NCBI RefSeq assembly: GCF_003018115.1
Contig: NZ_CP027457.1
Length of the DNA stretch: 64,000 bases
From: Escherichia coli
GTDB taxonomy: Bacteria; Pseudomonadota; Gammaproteobacteria; Enterobacterales; Enterobacteriaceae
Strand: one strand, 5' to 3'
Shown: one piece after another, positions 5,765 to 64,000 of the stretch
Position numbering within the stretch: the first letter of the stretch is position 1
How the letters are laid out: each line of letters opens with the position of its first letter
The notes under the pieces: model-generated
What the model was told of the DNA's origin: nothing
Database searches by the model: none
Seen by the model: only the letters and a program-made list of their open reading frames with translations
Program-made: the position numbers and the translations under genes

Positions 5765-5950
5765 TTAACTTTGTAACGTCATAGAGTCAAAGAAAAAGGC
5801 AGCCTGTGGTTGCCTTTTGCCAATAATTCGCACACATTGCGGGTTACTGCTTTATTTTCGTTCAGTGCTGATAACGAACATCAACCTGCAAAACGAAGCG
5901 CATAGTTTAAAATGGCTATCATCAATACGCTATATCTGATGGAAAAAAAT

Positions 5951-6535
5951 ATGCCTAAACTTATTTTAGCCTCCACCTCGCCCTGGCGTCGCGCTCTTCT
6001 GGAAAAACTGCAAATCTCTTTTGAATGTGCAGCACCCGAGGTCGACGAAACTCCACACAGCGACGAATCACCGCGACAGTTGGTGCTTCGACTGGCACAA
6101 GAAAAAGCGCAATCTCTGGCGTCACGTTATCCGGATCATTTAATTATTGGTTCAGACCAGGTATGTGTTCTTGATGGCGAAATCACCGGTAAACCGTTAA
6201 CGGAAGAAAATGCCCGTCTGCAATTACGCAAAGCCAGCGGCAATATCGTCACCTTCTATACTGGACTGGCGTTGTTTAATTCGGCGAATGGGCATCTACA
6301 AACAGAAGTGGAGCCTTTTGACGTCCATTTCCGTCACCTGAGCGAGGCGGAGATTGATAATTACGTGCGTAAAGAGCATCCCCTGCACTGCGCGGGTAGC
6401 TTTAAGAGTGAAGGATTTGGCATTACGCTGTTTGAGCGTTTAGAGGGGCGTGATCCTAACACGCTGGTTGGTTTACCGCTAATCGCGCTGTGTCAGATGT
6501 TACGTCGGGAAGGGAAAAACCCGCTGATGGGATAG
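5951..6535 (+). CDS. yceF: Maf-like nucleotide pyrophosphatase YceF
   Basis: ORF 5912-6535; start placed at internal Met ([19 protein letters not shown]...) by known N-terminus. Confidence 0.88.
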
Positions 6536-7723: not shown

Positions 7724-8098
7724 TCACCAGCAAGAAGTGAAAAAACTGTGAGTAAGCGGGTGATAAATGGTAAAAGTCATCTTGCTATAACAAGGCTTGC
7801 AGTGGAATAATGAGGCCGTTTCCGTGTCCATCCTTGTTAAAACAAGAAATTTTACGGAATAACCCATTTTGCCCGACCGATCATCCACGCAGCAATGGCG
7901 TAAGACGTATTGATCTTTCAGGCAGTTAGCGGGCTGCGGGTTGCAGTCCTTACCGGTAGATGGAAATATTTCTGGAGAGTAATACCCAGTCTGTTTCTTT
8001 GATAATTGCGCTGTTTTTCCGCATGAAAAACGGGCAACCGACACTCTGCGCCTCTTTGAGCTGACGATAACCGTGAGGTTGGCGACGCGACTAGACAC
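7724..8098 (-). CDS. questionable ORF antisense to the rne leader (position of K-12 yceQ)
   Basis: 124-aa ORF overlapping the rne 5' UTR on the opposite strand; Cys-rich, atypical composition; likely non-coding. Confidence 0.25.
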
Positions 8099-8178
8099 GA
8101 GGCCATCGGTTCACACCCGGAAAGGCGTTACTTTGCCCGCAGCTTAGTCGTCAATGTAAGAATAATGAGTAAGTTACG
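7818..8178 (+). promoter_or_regulatory. rne 5' untranslated leader (autoregulatory, RNase E-sensitive)
   Basis: Long non-coding stretch upstream of the rne ATG; ~361-nt leader length assumed from E. coli, boundaries approximate. Confidence 0.6.
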
Positions 8179-29831: not shown

Positions 29832-29936
29832 TCACGAGGGCGCATTCGCGCCCTTTATTTTTCGTGCAAAGGAAAACGTTTCCGCTTATCCTTTGTGTCC
29901 GGCAAAAACATCCCTTCAGCCGGAGCATAGAGATTA

Positions 29937-39032: not shown

Positions 39033-39133
39033 GCCAGATGCGACGTGAACGCCTTACCCAACCTACAAAATCTTGCAAAATCAATAAATTGCAGGAACGA
39101 TGTAGGCCTGATAAGCGTAGCGCATCAGGCAAC
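39033..39133. repeat. REP-like palindromic units
   Basis: GATGTAGGCCTGATAAGCGTAGCGCATCAGGCAA and a degenerate REP copy between the opgH stop and the terminator. Confidence 0.6.
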
Positions 39134-48595: not shown

Positions 48596-49348
48596 GTTGT
48601 CACCCTGGACCTGGTCGTACATTTAAGAAATTAAATCATTTCAACTTGGTTGTTAACGCAACCTGTATTTTGTTAACGCTGCGTTACGATGGAAAGTATG
48701 TCTGCGGAAATATTTTTAATAACTCACCCGCGCGTTGTATTTTTCTTTTTTTGTTCATACCAAAGTATTAAAACCCACGTAAATACGCTGTTATCTACGC
48801 AAAAAATATTTTGTTTTCTTTTAAATCTCCGTTTTCCGCTAGCAAAAAACACCAGACAGTCATTCTTCTTGCCCGTCGCTGATTGCTGCGATATGTCTTG
48901 CGCACAAGCCGTGACAAACCTCGTCTTTTTGCAGTAAAAAATTGTCCACGGAGGTGTGGAGAAAAAACAAGAACGTTTTACATGACGAAAGGACTACACC
49001 GAAATATTTTTTATATGCATTATTAGTAAGTTATCACCATTTGTATGATTTTTTAAAATTGTGCAATAAAAACCAAATGTACAACTTTTCTATCATTTCT
49101 AAACTTAATAAAACCTTAAGGTTAACATTTTAATATAACGAGTTACATTTAGTTACATGTTTAACACTTGATTTAAGATTTGTAATGGCTAGATTGAAAT
49201 CAGATGTAATCCATTAGTTTTATATTTTACCCATTTAGGGTTGATTTATTACTACACACAGCAGTGCAACATCTGTCAGTACTTCTGGTGCTTCTATTTT
49301 AGAGGCAGCTGTCAGGTGTGCGATCAATAAAAAAAGCGGGGTTTCATC
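48596..49348. promoter_or_regulatory. csgB-csgD divergent intergenic regulatory region
   Basis: ~750-bp AT-rich non-coding region between divergent curli operons; known multi-factor control region, individual sites not resolved by eye. Confidence 0.7.
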
Positions 49349-54892: not shown

Positions 54893-54980
54893 GGTGAGGT
54901 GTCCGAGTGGCTGAAGGAGCACGCCTGGAAAGTGTGTATACGGCAACGTATCGGGGGTTCGAATCCCCCCCTCACCGCCA
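54893..54980 (+). tRNA. serX: tRNA-Ser (anticodon GGA), serX-type
   Basis: 88-nt GGTGAGGTGTCCGAGTGGCTGAAGGAGCACGCCTGGAAAGTGTGTATACGGCAACGTATCGGGGGTTCGAATCCCCCCCTCACCGCCA; long variable arm, encoded CCA; adjacent to ghrA. Confidence 0.97.
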
Positions 54981-55129: not shown

Positions 55130-55971
55130 CTATACTGCCAGCATGTCAGGATAGTGTTTTGCGATAATATCATTCAGTCTGTCAACCAGTTCTGGTTTTC
55201 TGAACGTGATATGCGCGGAGCCCTTCTTAAAGTATCTGATGCTGAACATCTCATCTTCATAGTCCTCTTTTCCCTGAACAGATTGGATATGGTCATCCAG
55301 ATGAATGGTGATGTTTTCCCGGTTGTCGGGGATCGGTTTGCCGCTGAACAGGTGCAGCATTCTTTCCAGATCGGCAAGTCGATCGGCCTGTTGCCCGGTG
55401 ATAAGATGCCCCCCCACCGGTCCCACCTCACCAGATTGTTGACGATAATTTTACTGCCAAATTTGCAGGGTGAATTGGTTTTGTAATTCCAGCTCAGTCC
55501 CCTGAAAACGTTGATCACCCCTCGCTCAAACACTTCATCTTTGTTCTGGTGCAGTTGTTCAAACGTGCTCAGGATATTCGCTTCGCTGATTTCCGGAAAA
55601 TTATCGTACTCCAGTGACCGGTACCATGTATCACGGGCTTGTGCATCCATTAATGACAGCATCCCTGAACGTTGCATCAGGTCACGCCAGATTTCGCGGT
55701 CAAGGTTGTGGGTGATGGCTTTCATTGCGGTTTCCGGTTTCTCCATGAGCCAGCAGCCACAGCGAAAATCCTGTTTCATGGCCCAGTCCAGTGCGGTTTT
55801 ACCTCCGATGCTTTCCGCCAGCACCGAGATTTCTGCCAGTTGCCGGATAAGCGTGTCGATTTGCAGCAGTGTACTTTTTCGTACAGCCAGAATGTGGCGG
55901 ATACTGGTTGAGCAGATAACGTCCGTATGCCCGTTGACAACTTCCAGACGAGAGGCTGTGATATCAGACAT
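55130..55971 (-). pseudogene. uncharacterized island protein split by a -1 frameshift at a G7 tract (265-aa ORF 55174-55971 plus 98-aa ORF 55130-55426)
   Basis: Two overlapping same-strand ORFs switch frame at GGGGGGG (plus-strand C7, 55409-55415); an 8-G tract would give one ~330-aa protein; family not recognised. Confidence 0.6.
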
Positions 55972-55982
55972 AATCGATTATA

Positions 55983-57403
55983 TGAACGCATCCCGTTTGC
56001 AAAGGCATCCATTGTTCTGACATCGACGGTAGGTTGCAGCTTTATATCCGGCTTTATTGCAGCCCGGAAGCTGCGAGCCCCTATGTAATTCGCCGACTCA
56101 CGCCTCATTTCCTCAGCGGGCTTTAGGCCCAATCGATTATCCAGGTTTAGTGAGTCACGGTCTTACCTGTCTTTGTCATCACGCTGGCTGCCAGAGCAAC
56201 CTTTCTGCATTCACCCTTTTGTAAAGAGTTTATGTTTATCGGTATCAGCGATTAATCAGGCCTGATACTGACATGATTTTTGTCGTATTTACGTCCGTGA
56301 GCGGCTATTGCCCACACCGTTCGCGCCAGCTTGTTTGCCATTGCGACGATTGCCACGCTGGCCGGACGACGCTTTTTCAGTTCGGTTATCCATGGACCAG
56401 GTTCTTTGGTCAGTAATGCTGCCGCCCTTGCACCATGAATAAACAGGGTTCGCAGATATTTATCACCACGTTTGCTTATTCCCAGCAGGCGGATTTTTCC
56501 TCCTGAGCCTGTCTGTCTGGGCACCAGACCGATAAACGCGGCGAATTCCCGTCCCGACTTAAAGGCGGAGGCGTCTCCCATCGTGGCAACGGCAGCGGTG
56601 GCGATTAACGGCCCCACGCCTGGGATGTTCAGTAACCGCTGACAGGTTTCATTCTGTCTGGCTACCGCCTGCAACTGCTTCTCAATGTGGTCAAGATGTT
56701 CATCAAGTTCAGTAATTCGCTGATATTGTTCATCCAGCATGTTTATCAGGTAGAGCGGTAGCCGCTCCTTCAGACGCTCCAGGGCTTCCGGCACCTCCTT
56801 CGCCAAAGCAGCACGCCCCTTGTGCGTCGTTTCACCAAATTCCAGCAAGAGACCGTGAAGCGCGTTTATTTGTGCTGTCCTGAACTTCACCAGTTGCTGG
56901 CGCATTCGGTGTAACCCCAGCGTAGCCTGTTGCTCCTCGCTTTTAACGGCGACGGATTTTACCGGCTGCTGAACCGCCAGCCAGATGGCTCGGGCGTCCA
57001 TCACATCGTTTTTATTTCCCATCACGAATGCTTTGACGAACCGGCCTTTGAGTAATCTGACCTTATGTCCCAGTTTCTGAAGCTCACGCGCCCAGTGATG
57101 AGAACCCCCACAGGCCTCCATGCCGATAAGGCAGGGTTCACGGTTGCTGAAATATTCAAGGAATTTCTCACGCTTAACCTGCTTATCGATAATCTCTCCG
57201 GTATGTTCATCAACGAAATGCACCTGCATAAGATGTTTTGCAATATCAACCCCGACAGGGATATATTTCATGGTGTGGATCCTCCAGTCTGTTGGGAGCG
57301 AAACGCATCCCGTTGGGCACGATGATGCCGGAAATCTGCGGGGATCCACACTCATCTACTTAATCCCCGAGCGGCTCATTTCATAATGTTGGGATGCGTT
57401 CAT
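55983..57403 (-). mobile_element. IS110/IS1111-family insertion sequence (~1.42 kb)
   Basis: DEDD-type IS110-family transposase ORF bounded by a perfect 13-bp inverted repeat ATGAACGCATCCC (55983-55995) / GGGATGCGTTCAT (57391-57403); exact termini uncertain. Confidence 0.75.
56252..57271 (-). CDS. IS110-family transposase/recombinase
   Basis: ORF 56252-57355; start at MKYIPVGVDIAKHLMQVHFVDEHTGEI... typical IS110-family N-terminus, C-terminal LGISKRGDKYLRTLFIHGARAA region. Confidence 0.88.
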   Translation of the reverse strand: MKYIPVGVDIAKHLMQVHFVDEHTGEIIDKQVKREKFLEYFSNREPCLIGMEACGGSHHWARELQKLGHKVRLLKGRFVKAFVMGNKNDVMDARAIWLAVQQPVKSVAVKSEEQQATLGLHRMRQQLVKFRTAQINALHGLLLEFGETTHKGRAALAKEVPEALERLKERLPLYLINMLDEQYQRITELDEHLDHIEKQLQAVARQNETCQRLLNIPGVGPLIATAAVATMGDASAFKSGREFAAFIGLVPRQTGSGGKIRLLGISKRGDKYLRTLFIHGARAAALLTKEPGPWITELKKRRPASVAIVAMANKLARTVWAIAAHGRKYDKNHVSIRPD

Positions 57404-60470: not shown

Positions 60471-61289
60471 TCAGCACATGCTCTCCAGCAGCGTTTCAGC
60501 CATCACCCACAATGCGCGGTTGAGCTTAATATCGGTGTCGATGCTGTGAATGGCCCGGGTATGGATACGTTTTCCTCTGGCACTGCGACCGGAAATCCCG
60601 CCTTTCAGCATATTCTCCTGGATGGTCTGATAAGCACTCCACAGGTCCTTACCGTAATCCTCCCGGCGTCGTGGCGTCAGAATGTCGGCGGTGGTGACGG
60701 GCTGATGTTCGTCACCATAACGGTAAGTCAGTGCCGCCTGTGCCAGCGCCTGGCGTGCCGGTGGCGGCAGAATCAGCGACTGCATGGCATCACGTTTCTC
60801 TTCAATCCGGTCAAAAACCCCCACCACCTCGTAAGCACCTTCAATCACCCTGTCCACCACGTTTCCCCGGTGTGGCACCCGGACTTCTCCCAGCGACTGA
60901 CCGCAGACCAGGCCATTGGTGCAGATGGCACGAAAATATCCGGGTAACATCTGGTAGCTGGATGAACCGTCATGGGAGTTGAGCAGAATAATTTCAGGCA
61001 CATGCTGACCGGTTATCTGTCCGGCCCGCCGCAGACGCAGCATATGTTTGGTATATTCCCGGCGGCTCTGGTCGCGCACACGGGTCTGGCAGGCGAAGAA
61101 CGGCTGAAAGCCTTCCCGCTGCAGATTTTCCAGGACGGTGATGGTGGGAATGTACGCATACCGTTCACTGCGGGAGGTGTGCCGGTCTTCTCCAAAAATA
61201 CTCGGGACGTGGTACATCAGTTCTTCGCGTGTCAGTGGGCGCTCCCGACGGATCTGATTTACATGACCAAAACGACTGGCTAATTGCAT
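60471..61289 (-). CDS. DUF932-family protein (YafZ/YfjQ-like)
   Basis: 272-aa ORF MQLASRFGHVNQIRRERPLTREELMYHVPSIFGEDRHTSRSERYAYIPTITVLENLQREGFQPFFACQ...; family name from memory. Confidence 0.7.
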   Translation of the reverse strand: MQLASRFGHVNQIRRERPLTREELMYHVPSIFGEDRHTSRSERYAYIPTITVLENLQREGFQPFFACQTRVRDQSRREYTKHMLRLRRAGQITGQHVPEIILLNSHDGSSSYQMLPGYFRAICTNGLVCGQSLGEVRVPHRGNVVDRVIEGAYEVVGVFDRIEEKRDAMQSLILPPPARQALAQAALTYRYGDEHQPVTTADILTPRRREDYGKDLWSAYQTIQENMLKGGISGRSARGKRIHTRAIHSIDTDIKLNRALWVMAETLLESMC

Positions 61290-61329
61290 ACTTTGCTCCT
61301 TATGAATGAGTTAGCGGTATAAACGAAAA

Positions 61330-61357
61330 GGCCGCGTCTCCCGGAGAAGACGCGGCC
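61330..61357 (-). terminator. rho-independent terminator downstream of the DUF905-like gene
   Basis: Perfect 10-bp stem GGCCGCGTCT/AGACGCGGCC; minus strand then reads TTTTCGTTT. Confidence 0.65.
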
Positions 61358-61378
61358 TGATGGATGAAATGAAGACGT

Positions 61379-61671
61379 TTATTGCCTGAGAATTCCCTCA
61401 CTGGCGAGATACGGATTTAGCTGTTTTCCGGCATCAGATTCAAAATTCCAGCACCGCCAGCGCAACTGACCTTCAGCGTTGCGGATCACCAGACGAAAAT
61501 GCGTACCCGGGTCATCCTTGATAAACACATTGCGGTAAGCGGTTATGACAGCAACCGCCTGCCCGTATGAGAAAGATCCTTCAGCCAGGACATACTCTGT
61601 GTGTAACCCGGCATATCTGGTTTCTCCTGATAAATAGCCTCTGCCACAACGTATGGCAGAGGCTGAAGCAT
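61379..61671 (-). pseudogene. DUF905/YkfF-like small gene with apparent frameshift
   Basis: Frame A from ATG ([42 protein letters not shown]) shifts to frame B (...[60 protein letters not shown]), which carries the remembered HFRLVxR...WRxWNFExDAG signature. Confidence 0.55.
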
Positions 61672-61688
61672 GAAACTGACTTCAGGGA

Positions 61689-62144
61689 TCAGTTAACATT
61701 TTTTCCGGAAACGGTAATCAGCAGTGGATGGTAGTCCTGGGGATCGAAAACCGATAACGGCAGACTGACACGATGGCCGTTACTTTCTTCAGTTGCTTTA
61801 ATGATTTCGGTTGTGGCGACATTTTCCACGCACTCCGTTTCCAGAAATGCGTCTGTGGTTCGCGTGGCATTACTGTCACCAAAGGCTTCCGTTTCCATTT
61901 TTCTGGTCACCAGCGTCTGACCATATTTGTCTTTGAGTTGCAGAGTGATGGTGAGGGGGCCAAATCCTTCATAGTTTCCGCCATTATCCAGCCGGAACTG
62001 GTAGGCACAAATATTTCCCGGGAGCCATATCGTATCTGTATTGCGTATACTGATGTAACGTTGATCCTGTGCCCGGAGTGGGGCAGACCACGTTAACCCC
62101 AGAATGAAGGCGGTAATCATGCAGGTTTTGAACAGGTGAATCAT
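61689..62144 (-). CDS. secreted/periplasmic protein of unknown function
   Basis: 151-aa ORF with signal peptide MIHLFKTCMITAFILGLTWSAPLRA|QDQ; no recognisable motif. Confidence 0.6.
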   Translation of the reverse strand: MIHLFKTCMITAFILGLTWSAPLRAQDQRYISIRNTDTIWLPGNICAYQFRLDNGGNYEGFGPLTITLQLKDKYGQTLVTRKMETEAFGDSNATRTTDAFLETECVENVATTEIIKATEESNGHRVSLPLSVFDPQDYHPLLITVSGKNVN

Positions 62145-62219
62145 GGTATTTACCTCTCTGAGTCATGACGATGACACTGACAAATCAGGTGATAAAACGT
62201 AAAAGGCGCAGAATAGCCG

Positions 62220-63941
62220 TTATGCCGGTAACTCCGGGGGTAATGCTTCTTCCAGTCGGTTAACCATCTTGCCGAGATGGGATACATCATATTCCATGAC
62301 GGGGCGTTGCCTGATGATACTGACCACCAGTGGTTTGATTAACATATTGGTCGCGGCCCGTTGTTGTATACCGGCGGCGAAAATGATCTCCAGAGCATTC
62401 TGATCGATAACACGGGCCAGATTCGCGTTCAGATTTTCAATCTCATGTCCGGTCAGCAGGAAACTGCCGGCAAGCCATGTCACCTGCTCCTGAATCATTG
62501 CCAGAATTTTGACGCGATCTTCTTCAACCAGCGCTCCGGCAATTTTTCCTGATACAGCGGAGGCAATCATTCCCCCCAGAACACCGCCAACCACACGTCC
62601 TGTCAGTGCACCAAATGGTCCCAGTGGACTGAACAATATCCCGCCCGCCACTGACCCGACAGCACCACCTGCCACACCGGAAGATGCCACGGCAAGATTC
62701 CTGATGAACTGCGCACCGGAGATCCGTCCCCGCAACATTTTGATCATGTCAGGGCCGGTTGTGACAGCGACCAGTGCCAGAGATGTCACCAGCGTACCCT
62801 TCATCACTTTGTTCAGGGCACTGATATTTCCTGCACCGGTCCCCTTCTGAAGCGCCTGCCGGACAGTCGGGCTGGCCGTCGAAAAATCAATATGCTTCAG
62901 CATACCCTGAACAACACTGAGCCGGTGAAGTTGCTGGGTTGTGACGTAGACAGCCAGTGTGCGGGTGAAGGTTTTTCCTGCCTGGACAGCAGCTGTCTGC
63001 AGGGCAGCATCGCGATCGCCGGTGCTGAGCCAGAAGACCGATGCCGTCAGGGCAAAACTGATCCCTCCGGCCGCCAGACTGACAACCGCCCCCTCGGCAA
63101 TATCATAAGTGACCGATTCGATGGTCCCGAACCGGGTGATATTACGGGCCTGGGTATAAGTCAGATGTCCCCGACGAATCAGCCGGGACGCTTCTGCGGG
63201 ATCGGTTACACCGGGTACTTTACCTTCGCGGATCTTATTCTTCATGGTTTCCACAGCGCCGGCATACTGATCACGGGGGACTTCCAGTTGCATGGGACCA
63301 TGATTTCCCATGTAACGATACTGTCCGTTTTGTCCGTCGAATGCCGCACCGACGCTACGGGCTGCAGTTGAACAATATTTCGTCTGGATTTCTGTTCCGC
63401 TGACCAGTCTGTCTGCTCCATTTCTGGCATTATTATCACCGAGGATCCGTGCGTTTTTCAGACGGACTCTGTCGACAATATGGTTTCCCCGTTCAGCGGC
63501 AAACCCATGTCCCTGCCCTCCGGAAGCAAACATTTTCTCATTTGTACTCCAGGTTTCCGGCAGTTTCATGAGAATCAGACCATTCGCCGTTGCATCGGAA
63601 ATAAAACCGGTGTAAGAACGTTCATAAATGTCCTGACACAGTGTTTCTGTTTCGCGACAAAGAGAGGAGCAGTACCATTCCGGATCCGGCTTATGATTTT
63701 CCGGGGCATGATGTACTTCTGTCAGCCCGCAGGAGGCACAGATACGAAGCTCATCCACGTGGTGGAATGATACAAAACGGCGGCCTTCTGAAAAGGGGTA
63801 CCAGTCACCGCCGTCCAGGCAACGATCGAGAAAATCGTCATTCGCTTCCGGTGATAAATTCAGGCGGTTCCGGAAGAGGGTTTTCAGTTCATCAGGGGTA
63901 AATGACAGGCTCTCTCTCAGCTTTTCGTTGAAACCCGCCAT
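62220..63941 (-). CDS. large uncharacterized protein with N-terminal Cys cluster and C-terminal glycine-zipper membrane region (possibly YeeR/YfjW-like); reading frame stays open to the window end
   Basis: 573-aa ORF from first in-window ATG; frame continues without stop through 63942-64000, so true start may lie outside; GGAVGSVAGGILFSPLGPFGALTGRVVGGVLGGMIASAVSG segment. Confidence 0.65.
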   Translation of the reverse strand: MAGFNEKLRESLSFTPDELKTLFRNRLNLSPEANDDFLDRCLDGGDWYPFSEGRRFVSFHHVDELRICASCGLTEVHHAPENHKPDPEWYCSSLCRETETLCQDIYERSYTGFISDATANGLILMKLPETWSTNEKMFASGGQGHGFAAERGNHIVDRVRLKNARILGDNNARNGADRLVSGTEIQTKYCSTAARSVGAAFDGQNGQYRYMGNHGPMQLEVPRDQYAGAVETMKNKIREGKVPGVTDPAEASRLIRRGHLTYTQARNITRFGTIESVTYDIAEGAVVSLAAGGISFALTASVFWLSTGDRDAALQTAAVQAGKTFTRTLAVYVTTQQLHRLSVVQGMLKHIDFSTASPTVRQALQKGTGAGNISALNKVMKGTLVTSLALVAVTTGPDMIKMLRGRISGAQFIRNLAVASSGVAGGAVGSVAGGILFSPLGPFGALTGRVVGGVLGGMIASAVSGKIAGALVEEDRVKILAMIQEQVTWLAGSFLLTGHEIENLNANLARVIDQNALEIIFAAGIQQRAATNMLIKPLVVSIIRQRPVMEYDVSHLGKMVNRLEEALPPELPA

Positions 63942-64000
63942 GTTTCTTTCATACCAGGCATTGTCCAGTAGCCAGTTTCCGTCTGCCAGTTCAAATTCCC

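Follow-up and report, generated by a model that had tools for sequence, protein, structure and literature searches.

In E. coli K-12, the DUF905 family (Pfam PF06006) includes YkfF, a protein encoded in the CP4-6 prophage, with a structure in the PDB (2HJJ), and listed among the K-12 proteins of unknown function (PMC6174562). Genes of the same Pfam family name are also found in the leading regions of plasmids (e.g., EDL933_p0084 of pO157), beside antirestriction and early-entry genes (PMC12826799, PMC11125564). In particular, plasmid DUF905 genes lie near psiB/psiA (PMC12826799), while the pO157 copy adjoins ssb, and its transcript is up 5-fold with ciprofloxacin (PMC11125564). The literature on DUF905 and ykfF offers context statements of this kind, and we found no functional study in it. 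Because DUF905 genes are co-located with antirestriction, ssb, and psiB genes, the intact proteins may be small accessory "establishment" factors of incoming mobile DNA.

The copy considered here is on the minus strand of the window, that is, the whole 64,000-nt stretch of E. coli DNA that was analysed (contig NZ_CP027457.1). It differs from YkfF by a frameshift at codon 6 and by belonging to another subfamily, the one with the MPGYTEYV N-terminus. Unlike the plasmid genes, which are plasmid-borne and presumably intact, it is chromosomal, broken, and situated in a degraded island. Its orthologues in strains 33F4 (WP_001119729.1) and SK1144 (WP_001119727.1) occupy the same position between the IrmA-family and DUF932 genes; there, ACAC gives one open frame from the ATG, whereas the frame in the window is broken. 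The 3′ halves differ as well, with RWRCRNSE in the intact orthologues and RWRCWNFE in the window. The copies labelled "frameshifted" by PGAP in M217, UK_Dog_Liverpool, 2013C-4991, 2013C-4538, WB61, and HS13-1 have the same lesion, a third AC unit, in the same place. However, these M217-type copies add a second (−1) frameshift, observed in six sampled loci in five genomes of this type, while the window copy has the AC duplication only.

Family membership and genomic setting

The minus strand of region 61379-61671 contains no ORF of at least 60 aa starting with ATG, GTG, or TTG, in agreement with the sequence-only reading of this region. The only ORFs listed are a 49-aa ORF with a GTG start (61379..61528), the sole canonical-start ORF in the DUF905 frame, and a 42-aa ORF with an ATG start (61543..61671), which has no Pfam match. 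The stop-to-stop frame carrying the DUF905 similarity (61379..61681, minus strand; frame B) has no in-frame ATG, again as had been noted. The gene is absent from the ORF list as a consequence of the restriction to ATG, GTG, and TTG starts and of the 60-aa minimum.

The proposed assignment to the DUF905/YkfF-like family was borne out by alignment. Frame B matches PF06006 with a score of 83.2 bits, well above the gathering cut-off of 22.3 bits (E = 1.3e-23), the match covering positions 2-68 of the 70 in the profile, and the homology is real, far beyond chance. The gene also matches the YkfF structure, PDB 2HJJ (E = 1.9e-20), and its product is predicted to have the alpha-beta3-alpha fold of that protein. 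On the other hand, family members have a single open frame of ∼73-77 codons from the conserved Met1, while the ATG frame in the window ends after 23 codons. By descent, the window gene is a DUF905 member, yet a disrupted one. A tblastn search revealed no further DUF905 copies within the window, and no Rfam families were found in or near the DUF905 region. Elsewhere in the window, at 5789-5957, 7818-8154, 29887-29936, 39067-39109, and 49202-49293, there are gathering-level Rfam matches to the SraB sRNA, the rne 5′ UTR, the PyrC leader, and the ES036 and ES056 sRNAs; all of them belong to the ordinary core genome and have no relation to the DUF905 gene.

The upstream neighbour is an IrmA-family gene encoding 151 aa (61689..62144, minus strand; Pfam PF18673, E = 1.7e-37; present in RefSeq), and the downstream neighbour encodes a DUF932 domain protein of 272 aa (60471..61289, minus strand; Pfam PF06067, E = 3.4e-49; also in RefSeq). 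The island sits at tRNA-Ser(GGA) (54893-54980), and its gene order is Ag43, an 838-aa YeeR-like protein, the IrmA-family gene, DUF905, DUF932, antirestriction, RadC, DUF987, and YeeU/CbtA. This is the usual setting of the family, with DUF932, antirestriction, and RadC neighbours in CP4-type islands. The DUF905 gene is part of a conserved IrmA / DUF905 / DUF932 / antirestriction / RadC / DUF987 / YeeU-CbtA module of a CP4-type island at tRNA-Ser(GGA).

The YeeR-like protein (WP_096148373.1, annotated as a hypothetical protein) is represented in the window by its C-terminal part, the 573-aa ORF at 62220-64000 (minus strand), as its start lies beyond the window end; related loci have the Pfam domain YeeR_C, and in some other genomes the gene is flagged as frameshifted. 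At the island end by tRNA-Ser(GGA), RefSeq annotates a DUF4942 pseudogene, also frameshifted, and a transposase of the IS110 family (55130-55971 and 56252-57271, minus strand), which are further signs of island degradation. Just past the window, the same island in strain 2014C-4135 carries a type I restriction-modification system with an inserted DarT/DarG pair, DarT being frameshifted, and an anti-phage dGTPase.

Two hairpins flank the DUF905 gene. The first one (61636..61664, minus strand; 13 bp, −23.1 kcal/mol, z = −5.7) begins 25 nt past the stop codon of the IrmA-family gene. In the aligned homologues, the two arms of the stem are similar and the loop is variable, and the hairpin is probably the terminator of the IrmA-family gene. 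The second one, 3′ of the DUF905 stop codon (61329..61358, minus strand), resembles an intrinsic terminator: it has 13 pairs, 9 of them GC (−27.2 kcal/mol, z = −6.5), and is followed by a T-rich tail, TTTCGTTTAT. This confirms the earlier mention of a clean terminator after the gene. No sigma-70-like promoter site was found in a scan of 61200-62300.

The frameshift and the start codon

Alignments, three-frame translations, and the haplotype alignment place the lesion at 61599..61604 (minus strand), where a +2 bp tandem AC duplication has produced the tract ACACAC in place of ACAC in the intact copies. It follows codon 5, so that the frame changes at codon 6. Over their first ∼95 nt, the intact 77-aa homologues from 33F4 and SK1144 differ from the window only by one AC unit fewer, the same site reading TTACACAG in the homologues and TTACACACAG in the window. 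With the AC duplication set aside, the window allele has a clean downstream frame, and the family-invariant residues are retained.

The sequence-only reading had correctly called a frameshift, although it was placed near GGCAGGCGG (61550-61560), ∼45 nt downstream of the actual site. We reject that position, as frame B is already the one matched by the DUF905 profile and aligned with the homologues from ∼61591 (VLAEGSF) on.

The actual start codon is the ATG at 61614-61612, with which Met1, invariant across 31 family members, is aligned. It is preceded by a Shine-Dalgarno sequence, AGGAG (61624..61628, minus strand), with the anti-SD duplex energy of −7.4 kcal/mol. All other candidate starts are between −3.2 and +1.9 kcal/mol, and none has a Shine-Dalgarno sequence; the respective values are −0.5 for the ATG at 61671, +1.2 for the ATA at 61654, −2.4 for the CTG at 61588, and +1.9 for the GTG at 61528. 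The ATG at 61671, which begins the 42-codon frame and had been taken for the start of the gene, was rejected: it lacks a Shine-Dalgarno sequence, and its frame passes through the terminator hairpin of the IrmA-family gene.

The remnant of the DUF905 (YkfF-like) gene therefore spans 61379..61614 (minus strand), from the family-conserved ATG to the stop codon TAA at 61381-61379. Its length is 236 nt, compared with 234 nt in the intact homologues, and the intact protein has 77 aa, not the ∼85 aa suggested initially. Its predicted elements are helix 16-25, strands 29-32, 40-44, and 50-55, and helix 61-70. As a product of the frameshift, the window retains an out-of-frame stub of 23 codons (61543..61614, minus strand), which ends at TAA 61545-61543 and is the 3′ part of the 42-codon ORF.

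Loss of function, the CTG start, and public annotation

Given these features, the window DUF905 gene is very probably a null or near-null allele, a pseudogene resulting from the 2-bp AC duplication. In intact copies, the ribosome would load on AGGAG and start at the ATG equivalent to 61614, yielding a 77-aa alpha-beta3-alpha protein. In the window, the change from ACAC to ACACAC would shift the frame at codon 6. Because of this shift of the ATG frame, ribosomes from the only good start site would produce a 23-residue nonsense peptide ending at the stop codon TAA 61545-61543. The DUF905 domain frame would then be left without a usable start, from which a null or near-null allele most likely follows. 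Judging by the sequence, no meaningful amount of DUF905 protein would be expected from the CTG at 61588 or the GTG at 61528. The 49-aa product of the latter would lose predicted helix 1 (residues 16-25).

Three findings count against the gene being a pseudogene. Firstly, beyond the AC duplication, the frame is undamaged and has kept the invariant residues of the family. Secondly, the 69-aa product of the CTG start modelled by PGAP would keep every predicted element (residues 16-70). Thirdly, the frameshifted mosaic allele is far more common in public assemblies than its intact relatives. It is called as a 91-aa "protein" with an ATA start on 201 contigs and as the 69-aa form with a CTG start on 98, while the intact relatives, 96% identical, are rare (5 and 4 contigs), and a collection of ∼15 billion sequences has no exact match to the repaired 77-aa protein.

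These findings bear on the possibility that the gene is functional as presented in RefSeq, with translation from the CTG at 61588 giving a 69-aa DUF905 protein devoid only of the variable first eight residues. The corresponding PGAP CDS, WP_061351117.1, annotated in 2014C-4135 with the start read as ctg, spans 61379..61588 (minus strand) in the window coordinates, and its counterpart in EC958, WP_032142237.1, also begins at CTG. None of the predicted helices and strands would be lost from this product, which also keeps almost the entire Pfam match. In addition, alleles with three AC units, hereinafter (AC)3, and an otherwise intact frame are abundant. Still, we regard functional translation from this codon as unlikely. 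In E. coli, CTG initiates translation very weakly, and here it has no Shine-Dalgarno sequence (−2.4 kcal/mol compared with −7.4 kcal/mol for the ATG), while ribosomes from the strong ATG 26 nt upstream cross it in another frame. Moreover, PGAP is not consistent, labelling the same lesion "frameshifted" elsewhere or picking ATA, and other (AC)3 copies have gained extra lesions.

Recombination with an intact paralogue can account for the clean 3′ half of the gene, as the window allele is a mosaic. Its 5′ ∼95 nt are of the MPGYTEYV subfamily (78/78 matches within alignment columns 1-80), whereas the 3′ 76 nt are nearest to the S88-type MSDCHPVL...WNFE subfamily, with 74/76 matches compared with 62/76 for SK1144.

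The CDS WP_061351117.1 is probably an annotation rescue and not a gene with a real CTG start. The window-type copy has been given such a CDS because the AC duplication is its only lesion, while several decayed copies are labelled "frameshifted" by PGAP, and elsewhere fragments of 29-43 aa are listed. In total, the 2-bp lesion is recorded in at least five ways: as a 69-aa protein with a CTG start, as a 91-aa protein with an ATA start, as fragments of 29-43 aa, as a "frameshifted" pseudogene, and as nothing. Rescues with non-canonical starts create spurious protein clusters. The inconsistency inflates protein-cluster diversity and masks the fact that, at this locus, about one third of the copies share one site of disruption. 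The gene is present in public annotation, as the 69-aa DUF905 CDS of 2014C-4135 in RefSeq, and the (AC)3 allele is common, already annotated, and already known, an ordinary decaying island gene. Its biological weight is small, as it is one more accessory gene decaying within a degraded genomic island of E. coli, and the practical value of the finding is in annotation.

Allele frequencies and the origin of the AC duplication

The locus was typed in 5,426 complete E. coli genomes by exact matches to a 73/75-nt segment surrounding the start; about 2,190 of the complete records have this locus. The alleles were distinguished by the number of AC units and by a SNP 24 nt upstream, and all four combinations occur. 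The (AC)3 allele was found in 610 records with SNP variant C and in 29 records with variant A (e.g., EC958, ST131), and the (AC)2 allele, in 83 records with variant C and in 1,311 records with variant A. The frameshift is therefore present in about 31% of the typed records (at least 639 exact matches to (AC)3 compared with 1,394 to (AC)2). The search for (AC)4 with variant C produced no full-length exact match, the best full-length matches being (AC)3 alleles (97.4%); five records in the ≥99% band fell outside the matches listed and are presumed to be short partial alignments.

Decay of the locus goes beyond the AC tract. A TGG>TGA nonsense mutation was found in copies at this locus in GE3, Nissle 1917, M16807, ST69, and 2013C-3181. 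It hits the conserved Trp of "RWR", equivalent to ∼61453-61455 in the window, and is common to several otherwise different haplotypes. As a group, the nonsense mutation and the −1 frameshift cover both (AC)2 and (AC)3 backgrounds, and the nonsense mutation by itself is found on either.

Two pairs of loci, EC958 with SK1144 and GE3 with 2013C-3181, are identical within each pair over ∼450 nt except for the AC unit, and the pairs are on different haplotype backgrounds. The AC change has therefore arisen or reverted at least twice, or else travelled via short conversion tracts.

Another reading is that the AC tract is a recurrent mutational switch, with (AC)3 still weakly expressed via CTG initiation or via a +2 hop of tRNA-Thr on ACA-CA. 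If true, (AC)3 would be a down-tuned, rather than dead, establishment gene of a mobile element, kept because full expression would be costly in a resident chromosomal island. We consider this quite improbable.

Even less probable is that the tract is a reversible on/off switch of DUF905 operating by slipped-strand phase variation. The two pairs differing only by the AC unit and the occurrence of all four combinations of the AC state with the upstream SNP are what such a switch could produce. However, the tract has only two or three units, far below known contingency repeats, and the (AC)4 search had no full-length exact match. Neither the long tract nor the many length variants of a contingency locus are seen here, although the change recurs on two backgrounds. 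In one of the pairs, the AC unit varies on a copy that TGA has already inactivated, implying that the change is not tied to function. In addition, short gene-conversion tracts among the paralogous copies, of which there are two to nine per genome, explain the pattern equally well.

Programmed recoding was suggested by the sequence-only reading as something to be checked. A −1 or +2 shift, for instance, a hop of the peptidyl-tRNA-Thr from one ACA onto the ACA that overlaps it two bases further, would yield the full-length DUF905 protein, and ACACACA indeed provides overlapping ACA codons in the right register. The outcome was negative, making such recoding extremely improbable. The sequence lacks an X XXY YYZ slippery heptamer, homopolymer runs of five or more, and a shifty stop, and the ACA is followed by neither a stop nor a rare codon. 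Folding of 61530-61625 is no better than that of shuffled sequences (z = −0.9), leaving the tract without a stimulatory element. The two-frame arrangement is not conserved either: about two thirds of the typed copies are unshifted, leaving the shifted arrangement in the minority. Recoding at 61550-61560 in particular would fall within a stretch where the homology is in frame B already.

The pseudogene had been offered together with a sequencing indel as the two possible readings, and only the former stands. The lesion is a real allele and not a sequencing error, being by no means confined to one assembly: while the full 471-nt query is matched at ≥99% by one complete genome only, a sequencing or assembly indel hiding an intact gene in this strain can be practically discounted, since 639 complete records from many laboratories contain an exact match to the (AC)3 segment and about 200 further public assemblies have the identical gene, with its product called on 201 contigs and the DNA identical to the window in the assemblies checked. 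A dinucleotide duplication is also atypical of homopolymer-type read errors.

The DUF905 region of the window is 100% identical to the respective region of E. coli 2014C-4135 (NZ_CP027310.1). In that genome, the 471-nt query matches three places, indicating two further IrmA/DUF905-type loci there.
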